Part shown: positions 1 to 15,686 of the stretch, in pieces
Numbering within the stretch: the first letter of the stretch is position 1
How the letters are laid out: each line of letters starts with the position of its first letter
NCBI GenBank assembly: GCA_043816785.1
Contig: JBDRHP010000088.1
Location: forward strand, 1-15,686
Reading direction: 5' to 3'
Length of the DNA: 15,686 nucleotides
Source: Candidatus Margulisiibacteriota bacterium
GTDB taxonomy: Bacteria > Margulisbacteria > WOR-1 > O2-12-FULL-45-9
Position numbers and translations under genes: made by a program
The notes under the pieces: model-generated
Told to the model about the DNA's origin: nothing
What the model saw: the letters and a program-made list of their open reading frames with translations, nothing else
Database searches by the model: none

Positions 1-49
1 TCGGCGGGATTAACCACTGTTGTCTTTGATTGTAATCTTTAAATTTCAT
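1..49 (-). CDS. 5' end of probable IS1182-family transposase (partial, continues beyond left edge)
   Basis: Minus strand reads GAGGTGAATAA-ATG then MKFKDYNQRQQWLIPP. This resembles the FKxYxQxQxxLxPP N-terminus of IS1182-type (DUF772) transposases. Strong SD. Only 16 codons are visible and it is absent from the ORF track. Confidence 0.65.
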   Translation of the reverse strand, partial: MKFKDYNQRQQWLIPP

Positions 50-71
50 TTATTCACCTCACCTCAATTTT

Positions 72-113
72 ACCTCAAGAAACCGCGAAGTTCATTCGCC
101 GGTTTCTTGAGGT
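72..113. repeat. Single copy of the 28-bp palindromic element (core 79..106) with 7-bp complementary flanks
   Basis: acctcaa-GAAACCGCGAAGTTCATTCGCCGGTTTC-ttgaggt. The core matches 11686..11713 (GGAACCGCGAAGTTTATTCGCAGGTTCC) at 24/28 positions. Confidence 0.85.
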
Positions 114-127
114 TATTGGACACCCTC

Positions 128-187
128 CTCTGGGAGAGGGATCAAAAAACAAAAAGTGGTCAATTAAAGAAAAAGTTAGGGTGAGGG
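128..187 (-). repeat. Interrupted BoxC/REP-like repeat downstream of tldD
   Basis: Minus strand CCCTCACCCTAAC-[34 nt AT-rich]-CCCTCTCCCAGAG. This resembles the widespread CCCTCACCCTAACCCTCTCCC...GGGAGAGGG extragenic palindrome and is cut off at the putative IS end. Confidence 0.45.
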
Positions 188-201
188 TGGGATGAGGACC
201 C

Positions 202-1581
202 TTACATCCTCCCGCCGACAATGATCTCGGGGATTCTCGTAGTGGGTTGGGCGTCGCCAACCGGCGCGTGATCGTATTTGCCGCAAACTCCGGTCTGCCA
301 GCCTAGATCAGCGCCAACCATATCAATTATTTCCAGAATTTTTGGGCCATTGCCGGTCAAAATAGCCCCGCGTACAGGGTGTTTGATCTTTCCGTTCTCG
401 ATCAGATAACCCTCGGTAACTTCAAACACAAAATCGCCGTTAGTTACATCAACCTGGCCGCCGCCCATCCGTTTAATAAAAAGGCCGTCTTTGACCGAAG
501 CGATAATTTCCTCAGGATCCATTTCGCCTGGCGCGATGATCGTGTTGGTCATTCTTGGCTGAGGTTTTGACCGGAAACTCTGGCGCCGGCCATTGCCGGT
601 CCTTTTCAAGCCAGCCATGCCCGCTGTAAAGTGATCGGTCAGATAGCCTTTTAGAATGCCATTCTCGATCAGCATGGTTTTCTGGCCCGGGGTGCCCTCG
701 TCGTCAAAAGATAATGAGCCGAATTTGCCGTGAAGGGTGGCGTCATCTACCACAGTGACAAGGTCGGAAGCGACTTTTTTGCCGATCTTGCCGCCAAAGA
801 TGGACGTTCCCTTGATGATAAAATCAGCTTCCAGAGCATGACCGCAGGCTTCGTGAATTAAGGTTCCGCCTGCTTCAGAAGATAGCACGACCATCATCTT
901 ACCGGCCGGAGCATGGGGAGCTTCCAACATTTTGAGTGCCCGTTCAGCTGCTTTGCTGGCGTATTCCTCAGGCGGGTAATGCTCAAACAGCTCAAAACCA
1001 ACGGTTCCGCCCGGGGCCTCATAACCAGTTTGCAAAAGGCCGTTTTTTTCCGCGATTACGTTGATGAAATACCGGGTACGGATGCGATTATCTTCGACGT
1101 ATATACCATCGGAATTGGCAATAGAGACAGCCTGGTTGGAATCAGCATAGCGTACTGTTACTTGTCTGACCTTGTCGCCATAGGAGCGGGCGATCTTATT
1201 TAGTAGTTTGACCTGGGCGGTTTTTTTCTCAGCCTGGACCTCATTGGGCCTTATCTTGATCTGAGAGTTAAATCCAGGAACCTGGGGCTTAAGATCGATC
1301 TTATGTTTTATCTTTTTTCCGGAGATAGAGTCAGAGATCTTTAAGGCGGCGTCTCGCAAACTGGCAAAACTCGTGTCTGAACTGGCAGCATAAACAGTCT
1401 CTTTGCCGGCGATTACCCGCAAGCCAGCCCCGGCATCAATGCCAGCGGAAATTTCCTCAATTTTATTATCTTCGCAGGAGATGGTCGAGGCATTTGCCTC
1501 TTCAATAAAGATCTCTGCGAAATCTCCGCCGTTCCTCAGAGCGGTGGCCAGGAGCTCTTCCAGGTTTTCTTTGGTCAACAT
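202..1581 (-). CDS. tldD: TldD/PmbA family metalloprotease, catalytic TldD subunit
   Basis: 459 aa. GGDFAEIF N-terminus, HEACGHALEAD (HExxGH) motif, FDDEG, TGNGRRQS, PRMTNT, GGQVD, CGK, PVGDAQPT C-terminus. Confidence 0.93.
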   Translation of the reverse strand: MLTKENLEELLATALRNGGDFAEIFIEEANASTISCEDNKIEEISAGIDAGAGLRVIAGKETVYAASSDTSFASLRDAALKISDSISGKKIKHKIDLKPQVPGFNSQIKIRPNEVQAEKKTAQVKLLNKIARSYGDKVRQVTVRYADSNQAVSIANSDGIYVEDNRIRTRYFINVIAEKNGLLQTGYEAPGGTVGFELFEHYPPEEYASKAAERALKMLEAPHAPAGKMMVVLSSEAGGTLIHEACGHALEADFIIKGTSIFGGKIGKKVASDLVTVVDDATLHGKFGSLSFDDEGTPGQKTMLIENGILKGYLTDHFTAGMAGLKRTGNGRRQSFRSKPQPRMTNTIIAPGEMDPEEIIASVKDGLFIKRMGGGQVDVTNGDFVFEVTEGYLIENGKIKHPVRGAILTGNGPKILEIIDMVGADLGWQTGVCGKYDHAPVGDAQPTTRIPEIIVGGRM

Positions 1582-1587
1582 ATTTTA

Positions 1588-1616
1588 ATTATACCTGTGA
1601 AATCTGAAATTTTCCA
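1588..1616 (-). promoter_or_regulatory. sigma70-type promoter for tldD, probably leaderless transcript
   Basis: Minus strand TGGAAA-N17-TATAAT (1593..1588) ends 6 nt before the ATG. No SD is present. Confidence 0.55.
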
Positions 1617-1632
1617 CATCTGAAGGCGATAA
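1606..1632 (+). promoter_or_regulatory. sigma28 (FliA/SigD)-like promoter upstream of the divergent RSH gene
   Basis: GAAA(1606-1609)-N15-GGCGATAA(1625-1632) versus consensus TAAA-N15-GCCGATAA: one mismatch per box and exact spacing. SD GAGGT at 1656-1660. Confidence 0.5.
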
Positions 1633-1670
1633 ACAACCGTGGAGTTGTATCCTTTGAGGTAAATTGTGAA

Positions 1671-3869
1671 ATGACAAGACAACTAAGTTTCTCACTATAT
1701 CCGCTTTTATCACCGCGCCAAGCCAGGCAGCTGCGGCACTGGCGAAAAGAGCTGAGTGTTAGAACAGCATCTTATGCCCGCATGGCCAGAATATCTTCAG
1801 ATACACGGCCGGTCCAGATCGGCCGACTAGGGAACGTTTTTGTCGGCCAGAAGATCGATGAGTATGTCCCCTTGGAATATCAGCAAGCGATCACTAAGCT
1901 TAGTTCTAGAATTGCCGATCCCCATGGTCGGGCTTTGGTTGAAGCCGCCTGCTATCTTGCCTGGGAAGGCCATCATGGAAAAAACCGGGATGATGGCAGC
2001 CCCTTTGTCACACATCCTCTTGCTGTGGCCAATATCTTGCTTGGCTGGGGGGTTGGGGCAGAAACAATTGCCGCGGCCTTATGTCATGATCTGATCGAGG
2101 ATGGAAAGATGAATAACGGCGATCGGGTTACCAACGAAGTTTTAGCGCAACATTTGGGAGAACGGCTAGCACAGCTGGTTGACGGGGTGACAGAGTTCGG
2201 CAAAGAACCTGAGTTTAAGGGCGAAAAACCATCGATCGCTGAAATATTTAAAAAGCTCTTTGCTTATGCTGTCCGGGACCTGGACATTCTGATTATTAAA
2301 TTAGCCGACCGTTTGCATAATATGAGAACGCTCCAGTATAAAGCCTCTGACAAAAGATATGAAAAAGCCTTCGAAACCCTTAACGTGTACGCGCGAATCG
2401 CAGATATCCTGGGGATGTGGCAGCTAAAACGCGAGCTGGAGGATTGGAGTTTTCTTTATCTTGAGCCGGATAAATTCAAGGCTATTGAACAACGACGTTC
2501 CCGAATTTTTCAGGCAAGCGAAAATGATATTGCCAAAATAAAATTGGCCATTGAGCAAAATTTTGCAACTGCTGGGCTGAAAGTTGAAATTCCCCTTGAA
2601 GGTCGCCATGTTTATGAGCTTTATCAGAGGATGCAGCAGAGGGGGATTACCGACGTGGAGCAATTGACGGCAACTGATATTTGGCGTTTGAACATTGTTG
2701 TGCCTGAGCGGGCAGGCTCTTATGTGGCGCTGGGGCGCCTGCATGAGCTTTATGAGCCGATACAGAAGGAACTTTGTGACTACATTGGTGACCCAAGGTC
2801 CAACGGCCATCGGTTTTTACATACCTATGTTGTTGTGCCGCTTTTTGGCAGATTGTTAGTCCAGATCCGTGACCGTAAAATGTTCGCCCATTACCGTTTT
2901 GGGATTATGGGTTTGAGCCCTGCTGAGCGGGAACAGGAAAAACAAAGACAGACCTGGCTGACAGCCGCCAGAAGCCATTTAGAAGAAGGCGGGCTGTCAA
3001 CTGAGGAGACCTATGAAATAATTCGCCTGGTCAGCGCCCCGATAAAAGCCTATACGCCGAATGGGGATGAAATAGAATTGCCTTTTGGTTCAACTGTGCT
3101 TGATTTTGCCCGAAGTGTCCATGAGGAGGTCTTATATGCAGCTGCTGGAGGAATTGTCAATGGACAACGGGTGGAAATTTTTCATGAACTGCAATATGGT
3201 GACCGGGTAGACGTTATTAAGGACGAGGCGGTAATTCCTACACTTGAATGGCTGGAACATGTCCGGACACCGGAGGCCAAAAGTTCTATCAGAGTCTTTT
3301 TGTCTATTCAGGCAAATATAGATATCTATGCTGGCGCCTTGAAGGCCTTGGACGCGGCTTTAAAAAAATATTTTATTCCAGCAAAAGATCTGATCGAAAC
3401 AGATTTGTTTAGCCGATTTGTCAGGACGTATGGGTCTAGCGATTCGCAGGCCTTTCTGCTGGAAATTGGCAAAGGCCGAAGAAATGTCGAAAAGATAGTG
3501 AGGGAGTTGCGGGCTTATTATCGAAAGTTATTCAAGAGGATTATTAAAAAGGCTGCTGAGCAACCTGATGAGTTCTCCCCATATTATTTATCGATTGAGA
3601 CCGAGGATGAACGCGGAAAATTAAAGATCCTGGTTAATGAATTAGATTCCATGGGCTATAACATTCATGATATTTTTCAAGCGGACTCTGAAAAACTGGA
3701 AAAGGCAATTATTGTTTTTGCCGTTGATCTATTGCCAAGGCGCGGGTTGGCGGGGACGCTCAGACGGATCCAAACAATTCAGGTCCAGACAATTGCTGCC
3801 ACAGTTGGGGCAACAACCTTGCTAAGGCCGGACGGCGTGGAAGCCTTGAGAAGGCGCAGGAGAATATAA
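1671..3869 (+). CDS. Divergent long RelA/SpoT homologue: HD hydrolase, degenerate synthetase, TGS, helical and ACT-like domains
   Basis: 732 aa. RDDGSPFVTHPLAVA, AALCHDLIED and IKLADRLHNMRTL hydrolase motifs. TGS: YTPNGDEIELPFGSTVLDFARSVH. ACT-like IETEDERGKL. Synthetase motifs are substituted. Confidence 0.88.
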   Translation: MTRQLSFSLYPLLSPRQARQLRHWRKELSVRTASYARMARISSDTRPVQIGRLGNVFVGQKIDEYVPLEYQQAITKLSSRIADPHGRALVEAACYLAWEGHHGKNRDDGSPFVTHPLAVANILLGWGVGAETIAAALCHDLIEDGKMNNGDRVTNEVLAQHLGERLAQLVDGVTEFGKEPEFKGEKPSIAEIFKKLFAYAVRDLDILIIKLADRLHNMRTLQYKASDKRYEKAFETLNVYARIADILGMWQLKRELEDWSFLYLEPDKFKAIEQRRSRIFQASENDIAKIKLAIEQNFATAGLKVEIPLEGRHVYELYQRMQQRGITDVEQLTATDIWRLNIVVPERAGSYVALGRLHELYEPIQKELCDYIGDPRSNGHRFLHTYVVVPLFGRLLVQIRDRKMFAHYRFGIMGLSPAEREQEKQRQTWLTAARSHLEEGGLSTEETYEIIRLVSAPIKAYTPNGDEIELPFGSTVLDFARSVHEEVLYAAAGGIVNGQRVEIFHELQYGDRVDVIKDEAVIPTLEWLEHVRTPEAKSSIRVFLSIQANIDIYAGALKALDAALKKYFIPAKDLIETDLFSRFVRTYGSSDSQAFLLEIGKGRRNVEKIVRELRAYYRKLFKRIIKKAAEQPDEFSPYYLSIETEDERGKLKILVNELDSMGYNIHDIFQADSEKLEKAIIVFAVDLLPRRGLAGTLRRIQTIQVQTIAATVGATTLLRPDGVEALRRRRRI

Positions 3870-3873
3870 ACTA

Positions 3874-6714
3874 TTAGTGTCCTGATTCAGCCCAGTTTTT
3901 CCCGGTCCCCAAATCTACTTTGACCGGAACTTTTAAAGCGAGAGCCGCGACCATTTCTTCCTCAACAATCTTTTTGATTTTTTCAACTTCTTCTTTTGGG
4001 CATTCAAATACTAATTCATCGTGGACTTGAAGGAGCAGGCGAGATTGGTAGTCAGTAGCCTGTAGGCTGTTAAATATTTTGACCATGGCAACTTTGATCA
4101 TGTCCGCCGCGGTCCCCTGGACTGGCGTGTTGATCGCGGTTCGCTCGGCAAATGAACGCAAACCATGGTTAGGGTTGTTTATGTCAGGCAGCGGCCTCTT
4201 CCTGCCCAGCATGGTCGTGACATAACCGTTTTCTTTAGCTTGTTTAATGGTCTTATCTATGAATTCTTTAACGCCTGTGTGTTTATTAAAATACTTGCTG
4301 ATGTACTCGGCTGCTTCTGTCCTTTTGATCTTTAATTGTTTGGCCAGGCCGAAATCGGAAATGCCATAGATAATGCCAAAATTAACGGTCTTGGCAGCGG
4401 CGCGGCTAATCCCAAGCTCGTCAGCAGTTAATTGATGTATGTCGTGGTTTTCCTGGAAAGCGGCCAGCAATACCGGATCCTGACTTAGATCCGCCAGGAT
4501 GCGCAGTTCGATCTGTGAATAGTCGGCCGCGATCATGACCCAATCCTTTTTTCCTGGCACAAAGGCTGCGCGGATGCGCTTGCCCCAGTCGCCCTTGGCC
4601 GGGATATTCTGCAGATTTGGCTTGGAACTGGACAGCCGACCCGTGGCGGTGATGGTTTGATTAAAAGAAGTATGTATGCGGCTGGTTTTTGTATGGACCA
4701 GGGTAGGGAGGACATCGACATAAGTGGATTTTAGTTTGGTCAGCTGACGATAGGCCATAAGTTTTTCCGCGATCTCAAATTTTTGCGCGGCCAGCTCTTC
4801 TAATACTTCCACGTTAGTGGAGATGCCGGTCTTGGTGCGCTTGATCACCGGCAGCTGCAGTTTTTCAAATAGGATCTTTGATAATTGTTTAGGGGAATTG
4901 AGGTTAAAGGTCTCTCCGGCAATGGCATAGATATCTTCTTCCACATCCTTGAGTGATTTTTCCATCTCCTTGGACATTTTGTTTAGGAGCGCTGCATCCA
5001 GGCTAATGCCATTGCTTTCCATCTCAACCAGCACGGCGATCAGCGGCATTTCAACCTCATAAAAAAGCTTGTCCAGCTTTTGGCCTTTAAGCGCCAGCTT
5101 GAATATTTCGTATAAGCCAAAAGTTACGTCAGCGTCCGAGGCCGCGTAATCAATGGCTACCTCAATGGGCACCTCAGCAAAGTTCTCATATTCCGCGTCT
5201 TTGCCGATCAATTCTACTAATTTGATCATTTCCCGGCCCAAAAATTGTTTACCCAGTGTTTTTAAGGCGTATTTGCCGGAAATCGGATCAAGCAGGTAAG
5301 CTGCCACCATGGTGTCAAAGAGCGGGCCGCTGACCTCAAGGCCGGCATTTTTTAGTATCTCGATATCATACTTAATATTATGGCCGATCTTTAATTTGTC
5401 CGAACTGAATAAAGGTTGTAATCTGTCCAGCACAATCTTTAAAGGAACCTGAGACTGAACGTCTCGGTTCCTTTTGTCGGAACCGCGAAGCACCTCGACT
5501 TCGCTCGGTGCTGCCCTGAGCATCTCGACTCCGCTCGATGCTGCCCCGAGCTTGTCGAGGGGCTTGCCGAAGGGTTTATTCGCAGGTTCCGATTTGTGTC
5601 CGATAGGTATATAGAAGGCAGACTTTGCTTCTGTGGAGATCGACAGACCGACGATCTTGGCAGTAAAGGGATCTAGGCTGGTGGTTTCCAGATCAAAAGC
5701 AAACGCCTGGGCGGCTTGGAGTTTCTTGATCAATTTGGCCAGGGTTTCTTCGCTTTGCACGCAGGTAAAATCCAATTCAGAGATCTTGATCCTCTTTTTT
5801 TCTATGATCTCTTCGGTTTGGTATCCCTCAACTCCCTGGCTGTATTTTTTGACCAGGCGGTCAAATTCCAGTTTAGTAAATAACGGCAGGACTTTTTGCC
5901 AATTGATGCCAGTGCGTTTGCATTTATCAAAATCAATTTCAATCGGAACATTGGTGACAATGGTTGCCAGCATCTTGCTTAGTTTTGCCAGCTCAATGTT
6001 CTTTTTAATGTTCTCTTTGAGCGCTTTTTTAGTTATACGGTCAACATTCTCCAGAATATTCTCTAAAGTCCCGAATTCTTTTAATAGCTGGGCCGCTGTT
6101 TTGTCGCCAACCTTGGGCACGCCGGGAATATTGTCTGAAGCATCGCCCTTTAACGCCTTAAAATCAATTATTTGACTGGCCTGAATGCCGTAACGGTCTG
6201 TGACTTCCTTTTCTCCGTAAAGCATGGTATCGGTTATGCCTTTACGCGTGGTCAGCACCTTAATCTTCTTGCTTACCAGCTGCAGCGTATCAAGGTCGCC
6301 GGTTAATATCTCAACCGTGTACCCTTGTTGCTCTGCTTCTTTGGCCAGGGTGCCAATTACGTCGTCGGCTTCAAAACCAGCGATCTCATAGATCGGGATA
6401 TCAAGGGCTTCCGCGATTTGTTTTACGTAAGGGAACTGTTCGCGCAGGCTGGGCGGGGCCTTGTCGCGAGTGGCTTTATATTCTTTATACTCTTTATGCC
6501 TGAAGGTTGGCTCAGGCCGGTCAAAAGAAATTGCTACAAAATCAGGTTTTTCGTCCAGAACTTTGAGCAGCATGGTGGTAAAACCGTAGATGGCATTGGT
6601 AGTAATGCCGCTAGTGGTGCGCATGGTGTCGGGCAGGGCATAGAAAGCGCGGTAGGCGAGGGAGTTTCCGTCTATTAGGACGATCAGGGGGTCGTGTGTT
6701 TTAGGATTTTTCAC
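3874..6714 (-). CDS. polA: DNA polymerase I (5'-3' exo, 3'-5' exo, polymerase) with a repeat-derived in-frame insertion
   Basis: LIDGNSLAYRAFYAL, EADDVIGTLA, GDASDNIPGV, ExoI FDLET, ExoII GHNIKYD, ExoIII YAASDAD, TATGRLSS, DYSQIELR, AKTVNFGIIYG, QVHDELVFE. Start set at GTG 6714, overlapping the tsf end, because homology begins there. Confidence 0.96.
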   Translation of the reverse strand: MKNPKTHDPLIVLIDGNSLAYRAFYALPDTMRTTSGITTNAIYGFTTMLLKVLDEKPDFVAISFDRPEPTFRHKEYKEYKATRDKAPPSLREQFPYVKQIAEALDIPIYEIAGFEADDVIGTLAKEAEQQGYTVEILTGDLDTLQLVSKKIKVLTTRKGITDTMLYGEKEVTDRYGIQASQIIDFKALKGDASDNIPGVPKVGDKTAAQLLKEFGTLENILENVDRITKKALKENIKKNIELAKLSKMLATIVTNVPIEIDFDKCKRTGINWQKVLPLFTKLEFDRLVKKYSQGVEGYQTEEIIEKKRIKISELDFTCVQSEETLAKLIKKLQAAQAFAFDLETTSLDPFTAKIVGLSISTEAKSAFYIPIGHKSEPANKPFGKPLDKLGAASSGVEMLRAAPSEVEVLRGSDKRNRDVQSQVPLKIVLDRLQPLFSSDKLKIGHNIKYDIEILKNAGLEVSGPLFDTMVAAYLLDPISGKYALKTLGKQFLGREMIKLVELIGKDAEYENFAEVPIEVAIDYAASDADVTFGLYEIFKLALKGQKLDKLFYEVEMPLIAVLVEMESNGISLDAALLNKMSKEMEKSLKDVEEDIYAIAGETFNLNSPKQLSKILFEKLQLPVIKRTKTGISTNVEVLEELAAQKFEIAEKLMAYRQLTKLKSTYVDVLPTLVHTKTSRIHTSFNQTITATGRLSSSKPNLQNIPAKGDWGKRIRAAFVPGKKDWVMIAADYSQIELRILADLSQDPVLLAAFQENHDIHQLTADELGISRAAAKTVNFGIIYGISDFGLAKQLKIKRTEAAEYISKYFNKHTGVKEFIDKTIKQAKENGYVTTMLGRKRPLPDINNPNHGLRSFAERTAINTPVQGTAADMIKVAMVKIFNSLQATDYQSRLLLQVHDELVFECPKEEVEKIKKIVEEEMVAALALKVPVKVDLGTGKNWAESGH
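5444..5590. repeat. 147-bp composite palindromic insertion in polA: 28-bp hairpin doublet containing two nested 42-bp units
   Basis: 5444..5471 is identical to 11647..11674. 5479..5490 joined to 5575..5590 is identical to 11686..11713. The intervening 84 bp are two related 42-bp units. Confidence 0.93.
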
Positions 6715-7300
6715 CCAATTGATATCTGGTAAATCTTCTAATAACGATATTTTCGCCGATCTTAGCGACCAGGTCAGACAACAGGTCTTTAATGCTTGTT
6801 TTGGGATCCTTAATATAGGGCTGGTCCAGCAAGCAGATCTCAGAGTAAAACTTCTCAATTCGTCCTTCAACTATTTTTTGCCTGGCTTTTTCCGGTTTGC
6901 CTTCCTGCTTGGCCTGGGTCTCCAAGATATCCTTTTCATGAGCAATAATGCCTTCCGGCACATCCTCACGGGAAACATATTGCGGATTAGAAGCGGCGAT
7001 CTGCATGCTGATATCTTTAACAAAGGCCTGGAACTCAATGTTCTTGGCCACAAAATCAGTTTCGCTGTTCACTTCCACTAAAACACCGAGCTTGCCGCCG
7101 ATATGGATGTAAGAATCAACTAAGCCCTGGGCCGCGACCCGGCCGGCGCGTTTAGCTGCCGAGGCCAGACCTTTCTTCCGGAGGATATCAGAAGCCTTTT
7201 CCATGTCACCATTGGCTTCGGCTAAAGCTTTTTTGCAATCCATCATGCCGCAGCTGGTTTTTTCTCTGAGTTTTTGAATTGATTCCACGCTGATAGTCAT
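6701..7300 (-). CDS. tsf: Translation elongation factor Ts (short form)
   Basis: 199 aa. LREKTSCGMMDCKKAL, EVNSETDFVAKN, IGENIVIRRFTRYQLGE. Lies downstream of rpsB. Confidence 0.97.
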   Translation of the reverse strand: MTISVESIQKLREKTSCGMMDCKKALAEANGDMEKASDILRKKGLASAAKRAGRVAAQGLVDSYIHIGGKLGVLVEVNSETDFVAKNIEFQAFVKDISMQIAASNPQYVSREDVPEGIIAHEKDILETQAKQEGKPEKARQKIVEGRIEKFYSEICLLDQPYIKDPKTSIKDLLSDLVAKIGENIVIRRFTRYQLGEKS

Positions 7301-7312
7301 TTATCTCCCCCG

Positions 7313-8149
7313 TTAAAATCCGGTACGTTTTTCTTCTGGCTTTTCTACGATCTCAGCCTTGACCAGCCCGGCTTCTTCGATCCTTTGTTCTTCGCTTAAG
7401 ACGTTTACTTCTTCAGGCGTGTCTAAAGGCACCGCGATCTCGTCAGTCTTCTCTTCAATCGGCTTAGCGATTTCTCGACCGGTTATGACTGCTTCAGCCA
7501 CGATGCGGGTCAGCAGCTTGATCGCCCGAATAGCGTCATCGTTGCCCGGCATTGGATATTCAACCTCGTCAGGATCTGCGTTGGTATCAATAATAGCCAC
7601 AATAGGAATGCCCAGCTTTCTGGCTTCATTGACCGCGGTCTGTTCCTTTTTTGTGTCAACGACGAAGACGACGGCTGGCAAGCCGGTCATCTGTCTGATG
7701 CCGCCCAGTCCGCGGACGAGTTTCCTGTGTTCGCGTTCGATCAAGATAACCTCTTTCTTGGGCAAAAGATCAAAAGTTCCTTCTTCCTTCATTTTCTCGA
7801 TCTCGTTGAGCCGGGCGATGTTCTTTTTTAATGTCTTAAAATTGGTCAGAGTGCCGCCCATCCAGCGCTGGTTAACATAGAACATGCCGCAGCGTTTAGC
7901 TTCTTCTTCAATTGCTTCCTGGGCCTGCTTTTTTGTGCCGATAAAGAGAACGGTGCCATTGTTGGCCATGGCGTTTTTAATGAATTCGTAGGCTTTATCG
8001 ATCAGCGGGATCGATTTATTAAGATCTATAACATGGATGTCATTCCGCGCAGCATAGATGTATCTTTTCATTTTTGGATTCCAGCGCTTGCTCTGATGGC
8101 CAAAATGGACACCAGCCTCAAGCAATTCTTTCATACTAACAACCGGCAT
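7313..8149 (-). CDS. rpsB: 30S ribosomal protein S2
   Basis: [45 protein letters not shown], acidic C-terminal tail. SD AAGGAGG. Confidence 0.98.
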
Positions 8150-8182
8150 TTTTTACCTCCTTATGGGTCAAAACGAGAATTT

Positions 8183-8211
8183 ATCTTATCACAATAGCCT
8201 TAAATTTGCAA
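8183..8211 (-). promoter_or_regulatory. sigma70 promoter of rpsB-tsf-polA
   Basis: Minus strand TTGCAA(8211..8206)-N17-TAAGAT(8188..8183) with an extended -10 TG. Confidence 0.65.
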
Positions 8212-9318
8212 TATCGGCGGCTGTTTCCGGCTAAAAAAGGTTTCCGGAAAGCCATCCAGCGGCCAGCCGCGTTCATCCAGAGACAGGGAGAAATAAGAGG
8301 TAGCATTGTTGGCGAAGTTGCCATAGGGATGATAGGCATAGTGGAAGCCGATGCCGGCAAAATTCAGGCTAACACCGAAAGTAAAATTATTTTGAATGCC
8401 GTTGGGTTGCGGATCCTGGTCCATGCCGCCCCTGAGAGTCAGGAAATGATTGGGCGAGAACTCCAGGCCAAGGTGGGTGGTGGTTGGTTTGGCGCTCTGC
8501 AGGCTAAGGTCTGCGTCGGCCACGGCGGTCAGTTCCAGGGGCGAGAGAATAGCTGACTCGAACTCTTCACCCATCAGAAACATTCTGGTGCCGATCTTGA
8601 TCGACAGGGGTAAATCCTCTTCCTGGCCGCTGCGGTAGTGGATCTTGCCCGAACTTAAGAGGTTCTGGCCGACCAGGCCAAAAGAAAGCCAGCCCAAGCC
8701 TTTTTGGAGGAAACCAACATCAATGTTCATGCCTGAGCCGTAGGCGTCATTGAGTTCATTGCCGTCCTGAGAAAAGAACTTGAGATTAATGCCCAGGGAG
8801 ACTTTTTCCGAAAGTTTCCTGCCGTAGGAAGCCAGCAGCACGCTGTTGCCGAAGTTTGATCTCTGCAGCAGGGTGCCGGCAGTGTCCCGGATATCGATGG
8901 CGGTGACCGCGGCCGCCGCATAGCCGATACCAATGGCGCTTCTTTCTCCCAGCGGATAAACCCCGCCTAAAACTGTGTACTGCACTTCTTCTAATAAACT
9001 GCCGGACATGCTGGTGAACTCAAAGGCGTCAATTTCGCCCAAGCCGGCCGGGTTATTAAAAATAGTGTCACTATTTTCCGCCACGGCAACGTAAGCCTTG
9101 CCCATTCCTAAGGCCCGGGCGCCGACACCAATGGCCAACGGATCGAATGCCGTCTGTGCAAATGACCAAGATACAAGTAACAAGAACCAAGCAATAACCA
9201 AGAAACAAATTCCAATAACCAATTTCGGAATTTTGAATTTTGAATTTGAAATTTGTTTGTATCTTGTATCTTGTTTGTATCTTGTATCTTGTTTCTTGGT
9301 TATTGGTTTATAACCCAT
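8200..9318 (-). CDS. PorV/PorQ-like (FadL-fold) outer-membrane beta-barrel protein with signal peptide
   Basis: 372 aa. IGVGARALGMGKAYVAVA and IFNNPAGL motifs, alternating beta-strands, C-terminal FHYAY...YFSLSL, hydrophobic signal ending SFA-Q. Confidence 0.8.
   Translation of the reverse strand: MGYKPITKKQDTRYKQDTRYKQISNSKFKIPKLVIGICFLVIAWFLLLVSWSFAQTAFDPLAIGVGARALGMGKAYVAVAENSDTIFNNPAGLGEIDAFEFTSMSGSLLEEVQYTVLGGVYPLGERSAIGIGYAAAAVTAIDIRDTAGTLLQRSNFGNSVLLASYGRKLSEKVSLGINLKFFSQDGNELNDAYGSGMNIDVGFLQKGLGWLSFGLVGQNLLSSGKIHYRSGQEEDLPLSIKIGTRMFLMGEEFESAILSPLELTAVADADLSLQSAKPTTTHLGLEFSPNHFLTLRGGMDQDPQPNGIQNNFTFGVSLNFAGIGFHYAYHPYGNFANNATSYFSLSLDERGWPLDGFPETFFSRKQPPILQI
9160..9306. repeat. Inverted array of degenerate heptamer repeats (CAANNNN facing NNNNTTG)
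   Basis: caagata caagtaa caagaac caag caataac caagaaa caaattc caataac caatttc ... tatcttg tatcttg tttcttg gttattg. Perfect 17-bp IR at 9192..9208/9289..9305 and an 18-bp tandem duplication at 9256..9291. Confidence 0.9.
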
Positions 9319-9629
9319 ATCTTCCCCTTGCCAACCCTTTGTCCTGAAGTGGTAACGACCTGATAGAGGTAGATGCCATTGCCGACAATTTCGTTGGAGT
9401 AGCTATATCCATCCCAGCCGGTTTTATTGGTCACGCCGCCTTGCAGGTTAAAGTTCATTCTTTGCATCAGGCGGGCGGACATATCATATATATAGAGCAG
9501 CGCTTCGGTGGTTGTGTCAGAGGTGCACTCAAAGGTTGTGGCCTGTCCGCCAACAGGATTAAAAGGGTTGGGATAGTTGATGACGGTGGCAGCCAGGATC
9601 AATGTTAGTAACCAGCTAAGTTTTTTCAT
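9300..9629 (-). CDS. Small exported protein consisting of a T9SS type A CTD/FlgD-Ig-like sorting domain
   Basis: 109 aa. MKK plus a hydrophobic stretch, then NYPNPFNP, IYDMSAR, WDG, VGNGIYLYQV and a terminal KGKIWV. Confidence 0.75.
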   Translation of the reverse strand: MKKLSWLLTLILAATVINYPNPFNPVGGQATTFECTSDTTTEALLYIYDMSARLMQRMNFNLQGGVTNKTGWDGYSYSNEIVGNGIYLYQVVTTSGQRVGKGKIWVINQ

Positions 9630-9663
9630 GCTTGATAGCCTTTGGGGTCGATTGGGTTAATTA

Positions 9664-9672
9664 TGCTATAAT
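9664..9672 (+). promoter_or_regulatory. Extended -10 promoter for the yggS operon
   Basis: TG-C-TATAAT at 9664..9672, 10 nt before GTG 9683, in a short divergent intergenic region. Confidence 0.6.
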
Positions 9673-9682
9673 AAACAACAAG

Positions 9683-10384
9683 GTGTCAATTAGAGAAAAC
9701 TTGCAAGTTGTTAGAGAGCGGATCAAGCAGGCCGCGCAGTCAGTTCGACGCGACCCCCAGGAAATTAAACTCATTGCCGCGGTTAAAGCCCTGCCCACCG
9801 AGCTGGTTTTAGAAGCCTTAGAAGCCGGCCTCACCGATATTGGTTATAATAAAGTGCAAGAGGCCCAAGCCAAACAGGCAGCCATCAGGGCCAAGTTTCC
9901 TCAGGTAACCTGGCACATGATCGGGCATTTGCAGCGGAATAAAGTTAGACAGGCGCTTGATAATTTTGATATAATACAAACAGTTGACTCGGAACGGCTG
10001 GCAAGGGAAATAGAACTTAGAGCGCAGAGCACGGAATACAGAACACAGGTTCCGATTTTGATCGAAGTTAATACCTCGGGTGAAGAGACAAAATACGGCA
10101 TACCTATTGATTCGACCATTGATTTTTTGCAAAAGATATCTAAATTTGGTAATATTAAAGTCCAAGGCTTAATGACCATAGGCCTCTTTACAAGCGATCT
10201 GGAAAAAGTCAGGCCCTGTTTTAGGCAGTTGAGAGAATTAAGCGAAAAAATTAAAAATTTGAGCCTGCCCAATGTGGAGATGAAATATCTCTCCATGGGC
10301 ATGACTGATGATTTTGAAGTCGCGATCCAGGAAGGCTCAAATATGGTGAGAATTGGCCGAGCAATTTTTGGTCAAAGGAGATGA
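9683..10384 (+). CDS. yggS: YggS/PipY family pyridoxal phosphate homeostasis protein
   Basis: LIAAVK, WHMIGHLQRNKV, IEVNTSGEETKYG, GLMTIG, LSMGMTDDFEVAIQEGSNMVRIGRAIFG. Start moved to GTG 9683 (SIRENL). Confidence 0.95.
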   Translation: MSIRENLQVVRERIKQAAQSVRRDPQEIKLIAAVKALPTELVLEALEAGLTDIGYNKVQEAQAKQAAIRAKFPQVTWHMIGHLQRNKVRQALDNFDIIQTVDSERLAREIELRAQSTEYRTQVPILIEVNTSGEETKYGIPIDSTIDFLQKISKFGNIKVQGLMTIGLFTSDLEKVRPCFRQLRELSEKIKNLSLPNVEMKYLSMGMTDDFEVAIQEGSNMVRIGRAIFGQRR

Positions 10385-10390
10385 TTGAAA

Positions 10391-10831
10391 ATGGTTGAAG
10401 GTCTGTTTAAAAGGGCAAAAGCTTTTATCGGGATGGAAGAAGAAGGAGAAGAAGAAAAGCCATACGGCCAGCAGCTGGATATGTCGACTATTTTAAAGGG
10501 CAAAAGGGAAGCCAAGGGTGAGCCAGGCTATGAGGTCATGGTCTATGAACCAAAGGTTTATGAGGACTCCTTAAATATTTCCACTAATCTGCGTTCCGGC
10601 TCGCCAGTGATCATAAATTTAAAGCATCTTGACCCGACCGAAGGCACCCGCTTAATTGATTTTGTTTGCGGCACGGCTTATGCCATTGACGGGCACATGA
10701 TGAAGATCGGGGAAACCATCTTTCTTTTTACCCCCAATAGTATTGCCATAACTTCTGCAGAGGAACGCTCATCACTCGAGGAAGAAATAACATTTGAACA
10801 GGAAAAGCGAGAAACATTTTTCTCCCGCTAA
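10391..10831 (+). CDS. sepF: Cell division protein SepF
   Basis: EPKVYED, VIINL, RLIDFVCGTAYAIDG, IFLFTP. Synteny with yggS and proC. Start is ATG 10391 or TTG 10385. Confidence 0.92.
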   Translation: MVEGLFKRAKAFIGMEEEGEEEKPYGQQLDMSTILKGKREAKGEPGYEVMVYEPKVYEDSLNISTNLRSGSPVIINLKHLDPTEGTRLIDFVCGTAYAIDGHMMKIGETIFLFTPNSIAITSAEERSSLEEEITFEQEKRETFFSR

Positions 10832-10843
10832 TGAGGTAATAGG

Positions 10844-11641
10844 TTGACAACGATCGGTTTTATTGGCGGCGGCAAGATGGCCGAAGCCATAATTAAAGGT
10901 TTGCTCTCATCTAAAATAGTCGAACCCCATGATATTTGCGCTTTTGATATTGCCGGGAGCCGCTTAAACCAGCTGTTCAAGGCTTTTCGCATCTCGGCTG
11001 ACCTGAAAGATAATCAGCAGGTGCTGGCTAATTCACAGACGGTTATTTTAGCGGTCAAGCCCCAGGATATGGACACGGTCCTGGCTGGCCTGGAAATTAG
11101 CGCTGATAAATTGGTCATTTCTATTGCCGCGGGAATCACCCTGGCTTATCTGGAAAAAAAGTTTCCTGGCCTGCCAGTTGTCCGCGTGATGCCCAACAAC
11201 CCGGCGTTGGTCCAGGCGGGGATCTCGGCGATCGCCGCCGGAAAAAACGCTAAAAGGGAACATCTGGAGCAGGCCAAAAAGATCTTTGGGGCGGTTGGCC
11301 AGGTGGTGGAAGTTGATGAAAAACTAATGGACGCGATTACCGGGCTTTCCGGTTCTGGGCCAGCTTTTGTATATCTGGTTATCGAGGCTCTGGCCAAGGC
11401 TGGAGAGGATCTGGGGATCGATAAGAAAGAAGCTGAGAAACTGGCGATCGGCACTGTTATGGGCGCAGCCCAGACCATGCTGCAGACAGGCAAGTCGGCT
11501 TCAGAGCTCAGGGAAATGGTTGCCTCGCCGGGCGGCACCACAATCGCCGGCTTAAAAGTCCTGGAAGAAAAGAAATTTTTTGCTGCCCTGGTGGAAGCGG
11601 TTAAAGCAGCAGCGGAAAGATCCAAAAAATTAAGTAAGTAA
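10844..11641 (+). CDS. proC: Pyrroline-5-carboxylate reductase
   Basis: IGFIGGGKMA, LAVKPQ, ISIAAG, RVMPN, TGLSGSGPAFVY, VASPGGTTIAG. TTG start with SD GAGGT. Confidence 0.97.
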   Translation: MTTIGFIGGGKMAEAIIKGLLSSKIVEPHDICAFDIAGSRLNQLFKAFRISADLKDNQQVLANSQTVILAVKPQDMDTVLAGLEISADKLVISIAAGITLAYLEKKFPGLPVVRVMPNNPALVQAGISAIAAGKNAKREHLEQAKKIFGAVGQVVEVDEKLMDAITGLSGSGPAFVYLVIEALAKAGEDLGIDKKEAEKLAIGTVMGAAQTMLQTGKSASELREMVASPGGTTIAGLKVLEEKKFFAALVEAVKAAAERSKKLSK

Positions 11642-11643
11642 CA

Positions 11644-11715
11644 TATGGAACCTGAGACTGAACGTCTCGGTTCCATAACGTTTAAGGAACCGCGAAGTTT
11701 ATTCGCAGGTTCCTT
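11644..11715. repeat. Intergenic inverted doublet (REPIN-like) of the 28-bp palindromic element
   Basis: GGAACCTGAGACTGAACGTCTCGGTTCC (11647..11674), an 11-nt spacer, then GGAACCGCGAAGTTTATTCGCAGGTTCC (11686..11713). The second is a reverse-complement variant of the first. Confidence 0.92.
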
Positions 11716-11727
11716 GGAAAAATAAGC

Positions 11728-11985
11728 ATGGACTTCATAATTTTTGTTGTCAATTTTCTTTTTTCAGCTTCTTATGTGCTTTTGGCTGTCAGAGCTGTTT
11801 TGCCCTGGATCCGGCACAATAAACAGGATTCGCTGCTCCGACCGATCTATTTATTGACCGATCCGGTCTTGTCAGTTATTCGGCTGGGACTGCCGCCGGC
11901 CAGGATCGGCATGGATGTCTCGCCCTATGTGGTGATCGTTCTGCTCTGGATCGCTCAAAAGGTGATTTTGAAGATGTTGTCGTAA
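11728..11985 (+). CDS. yggT: YggT (YlmG) family membrane protein
   Basis: 85 aa, hydrophobic. RAVLPW, LTDPVL, GMDVSP motifs. Synteny with yggS-sepF-proC. Confidence 0.88.
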   Translation: MDFIIFVVNFLFSASYVLLAVRAVLPWIRHNKQDSLLRPIYLLTDPVLSVIRLGLPPARIGMDVSPYVVIVLLWIAQKVILKMLS

Positions 11986-12103
11986 GTCGGTATTGGTATC
12001 GGTAACGTCTCGGTTTAGTTTTGGTTGTGGATGTTGTCAGCACAAGAACGATAACAAAACCCATAACGAGACTAAATACGATACCGATACCCAAACCAAA
12101 AAC
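11976..12103. repeat. Imperfect inverted array of degenerate hexamer repeats filling the yggT-pfkB intergenic region
   Basis: GT-rich arm (gtcggt attggt atcggt ... tagttt tggttg) faces a CA-rich arm (acgata acaaaa cccata acgaga ... acgata ccgata cccaaa ccaaaa). Confidence 0.75.
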
Positions 12104-12115
12104 AGGAGGCATTAG

Positions 12116-13036
12116 ATGTCAGTTTTAATCGTTGGCTCCATTGGTCTAGATACAGTTGAAACGCCTTTTGGCAAGAAACAGGATATCCTGGGTGGTTCAG
12201 CTATCCATGCTTCGATCTCCTCCAGTTTCTACGCTGACACGGCCATCGTTGGCGTGGCTGGCAGCGATTTTCCCAAGGAGTATTTGGAGTTTTTAAGATC
12301 CAGGAACATTGATGTCGAGGGCATCCAGATTTTACCGGGAGAGACTTTTCGCTGGTCAGGCTATTATGAATACGATATGAACCAGGCCCATACCAAGGAT
12401 ACCAAGCTAAATGTTTATACCCTGTTTGATCCCAAGATCCCTGATAAGCTCAAGGATGCTGAATTTGTTTTTCTGGCTAACCTTGACCCTGAGCTGCAGC
12501 TCAAGGTCCTTGATCAATTGAAAAAGCCAAAACTGGTGGCCATGGATACCATGAATTTTTGGATCGAAAATAAGCGGGAGGCTTTGCACGAAGTGATCAA
12601 GCGGGTGGATGTTGTTTTAATGAACGATGGCGAGGCCCGCCAATTTATGGAAACCCCGAATATTCCGATCGCTGCTGCGCGTCTCCTGAAACTGGGCGCG
12701 AAATCCGTGATCATTAAAAAAGGCGAACACGGAGCCTTGCTGTTCTCAGCTGACGGCCATTTTTCCGCGCCGTCGTACCCGCAGGATATGCTGCGCGATC
12801 CCACCGGGGCGGGGGACTCGTTTGCCGGCGGCTTTATCGGCCATTTGGCCAAAACAGATGATCTGTCCGAGGGCAATATCCGTCGGGCGATCATTGTTGG
12901 CTCGGTCATGGCTTCTTACAATGTCGAGGATTTCAGCCTTGACCGGATGAAACGGCTGACACCGAAGGAGATCTTTGGACGCTTTGAAGAATTTCGGCGC
13001 TTTTCCGAATTCGAAGCGATAGCTGCGCCGCATTAA
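12116..13036 (+). CDS. PfkB/ribokinase family sugar or nucleoside kinase
   Basis: VGSIGLDTVETPFG, LGGSA, DTMNFWI, KKGEHGA, DPTGAGDSFAGGF. SD AGGAGG. Confidence 0.93.
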   Translation: MSVLIVGSIGLDTVETPFGKKQDILGGSAIHASISSSFYADTAIVGVAGSDFPKEYLEFLRSRNIDVEGIQILPGETFRWSGYYEYDMNQAHTKDTKLNVYTLFDPKIPDKLKDAEFVFLANLDPELQLKVLDQLKKPKLVAMDTMNFWIENKREALHEVIKRVDVVLMNDGEARQFMETPNIPIAAARLLKLGAKSVIIKKGEHGALLFSADGHFSAPSYPQDMLRDPTGAGDSFAGGFIGHLAKTDDLSEGNIRRAIIVGSVMASYNVEDFSLDRMKRLTPKEIFGRFEEFRRFSEFEAIAAPH

Positions 13037-13054
13037 AAACTAGGAGGAGAAATA

Positions 13055-13774
13055 ATGATTAAGGAGTTTCAAAGGATCGGTAAGTTTTTGTTTCAAGAAG
13101 GATTAATTGATTCGCATGGCGGTAATATGAGCCTGTTGGAGGGAGATCGGATCTTCATCACCCGCCGGGATTCCATGCTGGGGGACCTTAGGGAAAGCGA
13201 TATTGTTGAAGTTGGTCTGGAGACTGGGCCGGAAGACGGGCAGGCCTCGCGGGAATTGCCGACCCATCGGGCTATTTACAAGCTGGGCAAAGCCAAGGCC
13301 ATAGTCCACGCGCATTCCGCGAATGCTATTGCGCTGTCTATTACCGACAATAAGATCGTGCCGCAGGATGCCGAAGGCCTGTACTTTTATAAGGCCGCGC
13401 CGATCGTTCGGGTGCGTGACGGTATTGGTTCGGAAGAGACCGTTCGCCTGCTGCCGAATTTTTTGGGCGGCGAGAATGTGATTGCCGTGGTCAAGAGCCA
13501 CGGTAGTTTTGCTGTTGGCAATAGTTTGGCCGAGGCCTACAAGTACACTTCATCCTTAGAAAATTCCTGCAAGATCATTGTGGCCATAAGATCTTCTGGC
13601 GGTAGAGGACCAGGTTCAGGAGGAGGAAGAGTACCAGGAGTAGGGGGGAGAGACATAGGACAAGGACGGGGCCCGGTAGGCGGGGGACATGGACGAAGAG
13701 ACAAGGGTGGATATAAGTCAGCCATTCCGCCCGGCATCGGAGTTATGGACAGAAGCCGGCGCCACAAACGATGA
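13055..13774 (+). CDS. Class II aldolase/adducin family protein (fuculose-phosphate aldolase-like) with Gly/Arg-rich C-terminal tail
   Basis: GGNMS, ASRELPTHRAIY, IVHAHS and KSHG Zn-binding motifs. SD AGGAGG. Confidence 0.88.
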   Translation: MIKEFQRIGKFLFQEGLIDSHGGNMSLLEGDRIFITRRDSMLGDLRESDIVEVGLETGPEDGQASRELPTHRAIYKLGKAKAIVHAHSANAIALSITDNKIVPQDAEGLYFYKAAPIVRVRDGIGSEETVRLLPNFLGGENVIAVVKSHGSFAVGNSLAEAYKYTSSLENSCKIIVAIRSSGGRGPGSGGGRVPGVGGRDIGQGRGPVGGGHGRRDKGGYKSAIPPGIGVMDRSRRHKR

Positions 13775-15686
13775 CAGAGTTTGAAGCCTTATTATCCGGA
13801 TTAAAAAGTTATAATCCCCAGGCGGATCTTGGGGTGGTCAGGAAGGCGTATGCTTTTGCCGACCACGCCCATCGGGAACATAAGAGACTTTCCGGCGAAC
13901 CCTATATTACCCATCCTTTGGCAGTGGCATCGATCCTGGTGGAGCTCGAGCAGGACCCTTTGACCATTGCCGCGGCGCTGCTGCATGATGTGGTTGAGGA
14001 TGCTGAGGTTAGCCGCGAGGACCTGACTAAAGAATTCGGGGCTGAAGTGGCCAAGCTGGTTGAGGGTGTTACAAAATTGAGCCAGCTGACCTTTACCAGC
14101 CGCGAAGTCCGCCAGGCTGAAAATTTCCGCAAAATGTTCGTGGCCATGGGTGAAGATTTTCGGATCATTGTTATCAAGTTATCGGACCGCCTGCACAATA
14201 TGCGCACCTTAAAATACCTGCCCCCGCCCAAACAAAAGGATACTGCTTTAGAAACCCGCGAGATCTTTGCTCCTTTAGCCCATCGCTTAGGCATGTGGCG
14301 CTTGAAGTGGGAGCTGGAGGACCTGGCGTTTTCTTTTTTAGAGCCGGACAAGTACGAGGAGGTCAAGGGCTGGGTGACGGAAAGCCGCGGCGCGCGCGAA
14401 AGATATATCAAGAGTTTTATTGAAGAGTCCACGGCCATGCTGAAAAAGGTTGGCGTTGATGGCCATAGCTACGGCCGGCCCAAACATTTCTACAGCATTT
14501 ACCACAAGATGGTCGATCAGAATTTAGACTTTGATGAGATCTATGATCTGACAGCTGTCCGGATCGTTGTTGACACCATCAAAGAGTGCTATGCCGTGCT
14601 GGGTCTGGTCCACGCGGCCTGGAAGCCGATCCCAGGGAGGTTCCGCGATTATATTGCCATGCCCAAATCAAATGGTTATCAATCCTTGCACACCACAGTC
14701 ATCGGGCCGTCCGGCAAACCAGTGGAGATCCAGATCCGGACCAAGGAAATGCACCGGATAGCGGAATATGGCATTGCTGCCCACTGGCGCTACAAAGAAA
14801 AAGATACTGATAAGGGGCTGGACCAGAAAATGTCCTGGTTTCGGCAAATGCTGGAATGGCAGGATGAGCTGAAGGATGCCAAGGATTTTATGGAAAGCTT
14901 AAAGATCGATCTTTTTGTTGATGAAGTTTTTGTTTTTACGCCCAAGGGTGATGTTTTTGGCCTGCCGATCGGCGCGACGCCGGTTGATTTCGCCTATCAT
15001 GTGCATACCGAGGTTGGGCATCGCACAGTTGGTGCGCGGGTCAACGGCCGGATCGTGCCTTTGGATTTTAAATTGCGCCACGGCGACATTGTTGAGATGC
15101 TGACCGGGAAAAAAGATAATCCCAGCCGGGATTGGGTGAGGTTTGTTAAGACCGCGGGAGCGCGGGTTAAGGTCAATAACTGGTTTAAGAAGCAGCGCGG
15201 CGTCAAAAAGGAAGAAGCTGCGCAGGCCATTGTGGCCAGGGAAGACGAGCCGCAGGTCAAGCCATTGCTCGTGCCGCGGCCCAGGGTTAAAGCCAAGTCA
15301 GCGGTCACGGTTTCCGGCCTGGAGAACGTCCTGGTCCGTTTTTCCCGCTGCTGCCGGCCGATCCCCGGTGAGGAGATCATTGGATTTGTAACTCGGGGCA
15401 AAGGCATTACTGTTCATCGCCATGATTGTCCCAATGTGATAAGCCAGGATATCCCAAAGGAGCGAGTTATCCGGGTAGATTGGAATCCCAAAAGAGAGAT
15501 CGTGTTTCCAGTGGAAGTAGAGGTTGAGGCTTTTGATCGAGTAGGGGTGCTCAAGGATATTCTGGGCCAGATCTCGGAGATAAAGACCAATGTTTCAGCT
15601 GCCAAGATCTCGACCAAGCGCGGCAGCTCCGCCTTTTTGCGCCTAACGGTTGATGTAAAAGATAAGCAGCATCTTGAAGAGGTTAT
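13771..15686 (+). CDS. rel: Bifunctional (p)ppGpp synthetase/hydrolase Rel (partial, continues beyond right edge)
   Basis: Own translation from ATG 13771 (ATGA overlap with the aldolase stop): RLSGEPYITHPL, LLHDVVED, KLSDRLHNMRTL, GRPKHFYSIYHKM, YDLTAVR, RFRDY, NGYQSLHT, EIQIRT, AEYGIAAHWRYK, TGS, SRCCRP...HRHDC, ACT. Missing from the ORF track because there is no stop codon in the window. Confidence 0.96.
   Translation, partial: MTEFEALLSGLKSYNPQADLGVVRKAYAFADHAHREHKRLSGEPYITHPLAVASILVELEQDPLTIAAALLHDVVEDAEVSREDLTKEFGAEVAKLVEGVTKLSQLTFTSREVRQAENFRKMFVAMGEDFRIIVIKLSDRLHNMRTLKYLPPPKQKDTALETREIFAPLAHRLGMWRLKWELEDLAFSFLEPDKYEEVKGWVTESRGARERYIKSFIEESTAMLKKVGVDGHSYGRPKHFYSIYHKMVDQNLDFDEIYDLTAVRIVVDTIKECYAVLGLVHAAWKPIPGRFRDYIAMPKSNGYQSLHTTVIGPSGKPVEIQIRTKEMHRIAEYGIAAHWRYKEKDTDKGLDQKMSWFRQMLEWQDELKDAKDFMESLKIDLFVDEVFVFTPKGDVFGLPIGATPVDFAYHVHTEVGHRTVGARVNGRIVPLDFKLRHGDIVEMLTGKKDNPSRDWVRFVKTAGARVKVNNWFKKQRGVKKEEAAQAIVAREDEPQVKPLLVPRPRVKAKSAVTVSGLENVLVRFSRCCRPIPGEEIIGFVTRGKGITVHRHDCPNVISQDIPKERVIRVDWNPKREIVFPVEVEVEAFDRVGVLKDILGQISEIKTNVSAAKISTKRGSSAFLRLTVDVKDKQHLEEV

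Follow-up and report, generated by a model that had tools for sequence, protein, structure and literature searches.

Small dispersed repeats (SDRs) of the cyanobacterium Nostoc, described by Elhai et al. in 2008, are reportedly monomers of 21–27 nt that insert precisely, nest within their own kind, carry compensatory changes and have no known mover. One of them, SDR5, inserts at a single bond in HIP1 (PMC4390886, PMC3116915, PMC2884548). CGTC-tagged repetitive extragenic palindromes (REPs; Di Nocera et al. 2013, PMC3733652) are short tagged hairpins that form heterodimers, lie in some cases in palindromes, have in-frame copies in repair genes including that of DNA polymerase I (polA) and are reported without a dedicated transposase. 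REPs and REPINs with TnpA-REP (RAYT) enzymes, and the ends of IS200/IS605 elements, combine inverted doublets, single-strand specificity and insertion without duplication (PMC8266576, PMC6006769). In the Ssn system (cd10448; NTS/SRM repeats; Chenal et al. 2025, PMC11893778), a single-domain GIY-YIG gene is flanked by an oriented, dispersed, strand-specific repeat consisting of a tail and a hairpin; the enzymes act on single-stranded DNA alone, which they cut a few bases 5' of this repeat, and its mobility is raised by the authors only as a hypothesis. How transposase-less tagged hairpins such as CGTC REPs and SDRs spread is an open question (PMC3733652, PMC11893778). Here we analysed a 15,686-nt stretch of a Candidatus Margulisiibacteriota genome (the window; assembly GCA_043816785.1, contig JBDRHP010000088.1, positions 1–15,686), in which polA carries a 42-nt repeat unit nested in a copy of itself, which is nested in turn in a host hairpin. 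Two hairpins with tandem G·A pairs (GA-tandem hairpins) make up the unit, a doublet that carries no gene and is found at one fixed loop bond, in one orientation and without target duplication.

With the monomeric Nostoc SDRs the doublet shares very small size, putative mobility, precise one-bond insertion, self-nesting and compensatory changes, a likeness drawn from descriptions only. Unlike CGTC REPs, whose families 1–4 are marked by a terminal CGTC, TGTC or CCTC tag and a stem of 8–9 bp, the unit has none of these tags and its tails overlap within the 42-nt doublet; CGTTC-like tags occur on related hairpins beside homologous nucleases. Its targets are abundant repeats, many of them empty, whereas unlinked target palindromes were not found in two of three CGTC cases (PMC3733652). 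The REP/IS200 pattern, a hairpin with a tetranucleotide 5' of its foot, fits the host repeat, which has an IS200-type enzyme (PMC8266576, PMC6006769), but the unit lacks GTAG and a constant cleavage dinucleotide, ends flush with the hairpin foot, lies in loops and is unlinked to a Y1 gene. Compared with Ssn, the hairpin has tandem G·A pairs and a CYYG or CTG tail, its nuclease partner is nearest UPF0213 and outside the NTS-flanked branch, and within the class the repeat lies only upstream of the gene; loop insertion and nesting do not appear in the excerpts on Ssn (PMC11893778). The unit is likewise unlike the CGTC-ATTCCC NTS consensus, a repeat type that in this genome flanks another small GIY-YIG gene instead (L007, G000:C33:3032-3253), probably a true Ssn gene. 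Beyond what is already published for CGTC repeats (in-frame copies in polA, location inside palindromes, absence of a transposase; PMC3733652), and for Nostoc SDRs (precise and self-nested insertion), the analysis adds the pairing of GA-tandem hairpins with a UPF0213-like branch and a single loop bond that accepts many unrelated tail-plus-hairpin inserts, neither of which turned up in the open-licence literature. Nor did that literature yield any paper about this 42-nt family, repeats beside UPF0213 genes or Saganbacteria repeats; the supplements of PMC3733652 and PMC11893778 may list the hairpin.

Results

According to the open reading frame (ORF) call, polA holds a complete three-level nest in frame (Table 1). 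Its identity is supported by two profiles above cut-off (NCBIfam NF004397 and TIGR00593), and alignment with the Klenow fragment breaks for 43 residues right after the YIP.GH motif before resuming, with all three exonuclease motifs aligned. The host doublet occupies 147 nt (5444–5590); unit 1 splits its hairpin B between 5490 and 5575 and is itself split by unit 2 between 5520 and 5563. The two units, each 42 nt, differ at six positions, comprising two loop positions and two compensatory pairs (unit 1 versus unit 2: CACC/GGTG versus CATC/GATG, and CCCT/AGGG versus CCCC/GGGG). A GAGC-N2/3-GYCGA core is present in each half of a unit in opposite orientations, and neither insertion has a target duplication, with a junction ambiguity of 1 nt at level 1 and 2 nt at level 2; both features had been read correctly in the first-pass annotation, a model's reading of the bare letters.

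The host doublet was inserted into polA, unit 1 into the host and unit 2 into unit 1. That same annotation had favoured nesting over tandem duplication, and this is borne out because the same host bond carries an intact unit 1, free of unit 2, in 18 more places. Tandem duplication is excluded by these intact copies and by the match of the halves of unit 2 to other variants; an empty host doublet lies in the same window. Raw-data contigs weakly support the nest, in the right direction: none covers the whole stretch, one from run X1 corresponds to 5492–5590 with one difference and one from run X2 matches 5547–5934 exactly (contigs only, from two runs of one sample that may be the source). The polA loop is a repeated landing place: in-frame repeats, drawn from three families, occur there in 5 of the 27 orthologues compared. 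Besides the present gene these are L016, with a monomer, L017 and L034, both with GTAG repeats, and L036, with a host remnant.

Copies elsewhere were sought in the assembly (1.53 Mb, 86.75% complete) and in relatives. This genome has 120 host hairpins, of which 101 are empty and 19 are filled at one bond, G^TTYA in the loop. All 19 units have the same orientation (none opposite), and the filled hosts span 9 host sub-types and 11 host-by-insert combinations. A twentieth unit lies at GAG^C inside another nest (C11:45301); there, G000:C11:45282-45364 is a second triple nest, a GA hairpin containing a 24-nt hairpin that contains the 42-nt unit. A degenerate unit pattern gave 21 matches here and none for a reversed control pattern, so the unit is not a chance sequence, and 6 matches in 2 of 145 other genomes of the phylum; the further copies on which the annotation had staked its reading thus exist both here and in relatives. 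Two relatives hold six unit copies at GAG^C of single GA hairpins and one more in the host tip (rows without hairpin structure were excluded, and two spurious rows were dropped from another listing). Since full-doublet scans of a wider collection yielded only 4 and 18 stretches, with identical loci counted once, the full-doublet family is narrow.

The host bond itself is used more widely. It is filled in 13 of 64 other genomes of the class by 28 inserts of about 18 kinds, 19–42 nt long (three of 31 non-self rows were dropped as tandem hosts or chance matches, and the G before the insert is fixed by the pattern). The inserts end at the hairpin 3' foot, 8 of them in A; 20 begin with a CYYG tail and 22 have a length divisible by three. 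In this genome, units keep the frame in polA and in long ORFs at C80 and C92, whose starts we take to resemble leucyl-tRNA synthetase and MiaB; another lies at the end of a Y1 ORF on C10. The 24-nt monomer, which is the unit's forward hairpin, is preceded by G in 33 of 65 genomes (112 matches) and by other bases in 38 of 65 (103 matches).

The annotation had also read the unit as an inverted doublet of two covarying hairpins, in agreement with our comparison of 23 distinct variants, in which 7 of 12 pairs show two-sided changes. The covariation score was 34 cells against 9.4 after shuffling, a value reached in 0 of 500 shuffles, and slid controls scored far lower; related sequences can beat such shuffles and the variants were picked by a pattern, which imposed no pairing on the first stem. 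Covariation across one long hairpin spanning the doublet, the fold that ViennaRNA prefers for unit 2, was no better than in shuffles. The comparison thus supports two predicted local hairpins rather than one long one. Rfam gave no matches at gathering score in the window. Invariant GA..GA columns stand opposite one another in the unit hairpins, and tandem G·A pairs stack strongly in DNA (PMC8163305). We infer that each strand would offer one foldable hairpin after a short tail, closed by tandem G·A pairs, with the tails overlapping in the 3-nt linker.

The lack of duplication, the fixed orientation and the landing in hairpin loops support a single-stranded process directed by structure. In the host repeat the unit follows the loop G, and in its own kind it follows GAG; on the foldable strand the cut would in both target types follow the G that closes the loop. 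The annotation had placed insertion after AG, guided by pairing of that AG with a CT of the incoming hairpin. AG does precede both insertions at the polA locus, and AAG hosts are over-filled relative to ACG hosts (12:7 filled versus 35:63 empty, P = 0.04), but AG is not a rule: CG stands before 7 of 19 units here and before 22 of 28 class-wide inserts. One and the same tail is found after AAG and after ACG, and the guide pairing is not supported either. AG precedes only 4 of the 33 G-preceded monomers displayed. A requirement for G was also rejected; it holds for the 19 host copies, but the class pattern presupposes G, only 112 of 215 free monomers follow it and several metagenome variants (42–43 nt) follow A. 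A one-base G duplication is excluded by the eight A-ending inserts.

These junctions bear on HUH strand transfer, the chemistry suggested by the annotation, in which the IS200-type Y1 of the host repeat, or a RAYT in trans, would cut and join the unit as single-stranded DNA. Landing in hairpin loops and on a fixed strand (19:0) upholds the single-strand, structure-guided part of that suggestion, and the lack of duplication together with the fixed strand fits peel-and-paste chemistry (PMC6006769). Shifted by 1 nt, AG-preceded junctions (12 of 19) would on the minus strand become C^T, where TnpA-REP cuts (PMC8266576), and the excess of filled AAG hosts agrees with this; AG being CT on the opposite strand, the dinucleotide cut by TnpA-REP, is a residual point for the annotation. 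HUH enzymes also join without host help, which would explain the joining more simply. The same shift gives C^G for 7 of 19 copies, and no C^N register is possible for the 8 of 28 inserts that end in A. Targets end in AAG, ACG, GAG and others, without a conserved tetranucleotide or covariation between tail and target, and the tails (CTG, TTG, CYYG) carry no GTAG (GTRG) tag.

Gene neighbourhoods separate the Y1 enzyme from the unit. The Y1 gene on C10 scores above the IS200 cut-off and below the RAYT cut-off; its flanking hairpins are of the host type and include a filled one, a point in favour of the HUH explanation. Its homologues are flanked by the host hairpin at 14 of 30 loci (2 of 30 control pairs), whereas the insert hairpin lies upstream at 0 of 30 and downstream at 1 of 30, in a copy nested in a host hairpin. 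Monomer presence is unlinked to Y1 presence (20 of 29 versus 24 of 36 genomes). The IS200-type Y1 is the partner of the host hairpin and not of the insert, and HUH transfer of the unit is in our view unlikely. A second IS200-type Y1 gene with an internal TAG also has flanking host hairpins (G000:C60:7523-7870), and three RAYT-like genes (C16, C49, C99) stand with other repeats.

The insert hairpin has a different neighbour. Among the five Y1-family genes (Y1/RAYT), six small GIY-YIG genes and one reverse transcriptase of this genome, the candidate is a 98-residue GIY-YIG protein (G000:C77, locus L006:1495-1791), whose closest solved proteins belong to UPF0213 (PDB 1ZG2, 1YWL). For the best 30 of 66 class matches, a GA-tandem hairpin lies within 250 nt upstream of such genes at 16 of 30 loci and downstream at 0 of 30, compared with 0 of 159 control windows and 13 of 2,000 random windows of this genome. 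In other classes (30 of 46 matches in 80 genomes), 7 of 30 loci have the hairpin, all among the 10 closest homologues (0 of 165 controls). Many of these loci have it on either side of the gene, and the flanking hairpins themselves contain nests; of four plasmid loci, one from Sphingomonas (L212) is flanked. The GA-tandem hairpin type and a UPF0213-like nuclease branch are physically paired. The annotation had looked to a repeat-flanked Y1 or GIY-YIG gene, and it is the GIY-YIG gene that the insert hairpin accompanies. Monomers are present in 39 of 51 genomes with the C77-type nuclease and in 5 of 14 without it (P = 0.008, with kin not independent).

In a short tree (91 columns, omitting L009 and L011, which were not located), GA-flanked proteins are spread over three branches that also contain unflanked ones. 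These lie apart from the branch flanked by NTS-like repeats (5 of 6) and from one in which no member is flanked (0 of 16). The C77 protein is probably outside cd10448, as judged from its nearest relatives, UPF0213, and its separation from the NTS-flanked branch. In most class loci its gene follows tRNA-Gln, -Asn or -Met (tRNA called at 20 of 30). We rejected the idea that nearby tRNA genes account for the link with the nuclease, as the hairpin lies downstream of 0 of the 21 tRNA genes called here by ARAGORN, which missed some tRNA-like genes. At C77 itself, an apparent tRNA gene directly upstream of the GIY-YIG gene contains a group I intron-like stretch (L152 930-1420; Rfam RF00028, just below gathering score); L153 has a similar arrangement. 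At L170 and L171, the tRNA-Gln 3' end is repeated downstream of the GIY-YIG gene, as if from an integrated cassette.

We consider the unit a likely non-autonomous mobile repeat and put at about even the chance that its spread is started by a UPF0213-like GIY-YIG enzyme and completed by host copying and sealing. Only the pattern is observed; the enzymatic steps are modelled on Ssn. A small UPF0213-like GIY-YIG would nick single-stranded DNA at or next to GA-tandem hairpins, so that the target loop has a free 3'-OH on its 5' side. Host polymerase would copy the tail and hairpin from a donor, halt at the hairpin 3' foot and return, after which ligase would seal the strand. Units with a length divisible by three would survive in protein loops, and some of the copies probably arose as passengers of the host repeat, which has an IS200-type Y1 partner. 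The monomer's left end, 4 nt 5' of the stem, is compatible with cutting 5' of the hairpin.

Several points weigh against nuclease-started spread. GIY-YIG enzymes hydrolyse, and strand joining is beyond them. Ssn is described as cutting beside its own repeat, not in unrelated hairpin loops (PMC11893778). The association of gene and repeat is no proof of movement. The class loci are related to one another and lie in a hot spot next to tRNA genes. No such hairpin accompanies the gene at 14 of the 30 loci in the class or at 23 of the 30 in other classes, and the GA-flanked nucleases do not form one clade, the label needing 15 changes on the tree. Besides this nuclease the genome encodes a reverse transcriptase, further small GIY-YIG proteins and the five Y1/RAYT enzymes; the two-hairpin fold is not the one favoured by standard energy models; and the near balance of G-preceded and other free monomers makes G a preference only. 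Finally, filled copies span fewer host sub-types than a random draw (9 versus 12.6 expected, P = 0.017), and the CCAGTC variant is confined to AAG hosts (5 of 5), both of which would be expected from passenger spread.

The last two observations favour an explanation without a dedicated mover, namely rare polymerase template switches at hairpins followed by passenger spread on the host repeat or gene conversion. Tandem repeats of tail and left arm in genome G141 look like slippage, and the X1 contig continues after 5492–5590 into another flank, as if the nest also lay elsewhere (possibly a misjoin). As the main route this explanation would have to account for at least 11 host-by-insert combinations, each requiring compensatory changes on both host arms after filling, and for about 18 unrelated inserts at the same bond in 13 genomes; the unit moreover occurs in a different target type without a host hairpin, and its ends are precise. 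We judge it improbable in that role; passenger spread probably contributes in any case.

A route through RNA, in which the resident reverse transcriptase, of group II intron-like type, would copy transcribed hairpins for insertion at nicks, is the least likely explanation, and we give it very little weight. The genome has an RVT_1 gene with a YADD motif (an ORF of 451 aa, L216 1174-2529, is group II intron-like), and tandem G·A pairs are stable in RNA too. No link between the repeat and the reverse transcriptase gene was seen, each strand has one foldable hairpin, wobble pairs favour neither strand, and the duplication or tail typical of retro-insertion is absent.

Table 1 Features of the polA nest and of related hairpins in the window
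Feature	Position	Strand	Evidence or remark
polA ORF (DNA polymerase I), nest in 3'-5' exonuclease-like domain	3874..6870	-	ORF, NCBIfam, Klenow alignment
Host hairpin A, first of host doublet, loop TGAAC on +	5444..5471	.	Identical 28-nt copy at 11647-11674; many genomic copies
Host hairpin B, left arm; ends in loop G preceding unit 1	5479..5490	+	
Unit 1, left part: reversed GA-tandem hairpin (5491-5510), CTG linker, forward-hairpin left arm to GAG	5491..5520	+	
Unit 2, uninterrupted (42 nt), at GAG^C of unit 1	5521..5562	+	Relatives use same site
Unit 2 parts: reversed hairpin, linker, forward hairpin	5521-5540, 5541-5543, 5544-5562	+	
Unit 1, right part (remaining forward hairpin)	5563..5574	+	
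Host hairpin B, right arm, begins with loop TTTA	5575..5590	+	Identical 17 nt at 11697-11713
Empty host doublet, unfilled reference in same window	11647..11713	.	
Further host-type hairpin, in end of multicopy insertion sequence at contig end	77..109	.	

Other repeats were noticed in passing. Positions 1–125 of the window and 11 other contig ends belong to a multicopy insertion sequence with a host hairpin just inside the shared terminal repeat at both ends; all its copies sit in a CCCTCTCCC-type palindrome, and the start of its ORF presumably resembles IS1182. A 20-nt perfect palindrome occurs at 43 genomic places, several of them inside host hairpins and in tRNA-like duplicates beside small GIY-YIG genes, and has G before or C after it in 21 of 28 exact copies (41% expected). 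The window also holds inverted arrays of 6–7-nt tandem units (9189–9308 and 11989–12097), one overlapping the start of ORF 8200–9318, and two ORFs within 16 kb (1671–3869 and 13771–15684) that we take to be RelA/SpoT-like.

Discussion

Tentatively, and with less confidence than for the unit itself, we propose that the UPF0213-like GIY-YIG branch outside Ssn could be the missing mover of transposase-less tagged hairpins, opening single-stranded hairpin loops so that any tail-plus-hairpin of about 19–43 nt could be written into the nick. In this system both the empty and the filled sites are known exactly, the target is a single bond, donor variants are numerous and the candidate enzyme has 98 residues, so that the question of how such hairpins spread can be reduced to a short in vitro test. 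It also shows how essential proteins can acquire insertions in their loops, as in the polA loop with its three repeat families. If the proposal is true, transposase-free, duplication-free, loop-targeted micro-transposition would build Russian-doll repeats and add in-frame peptides to proteins such as DNA polymerase I.

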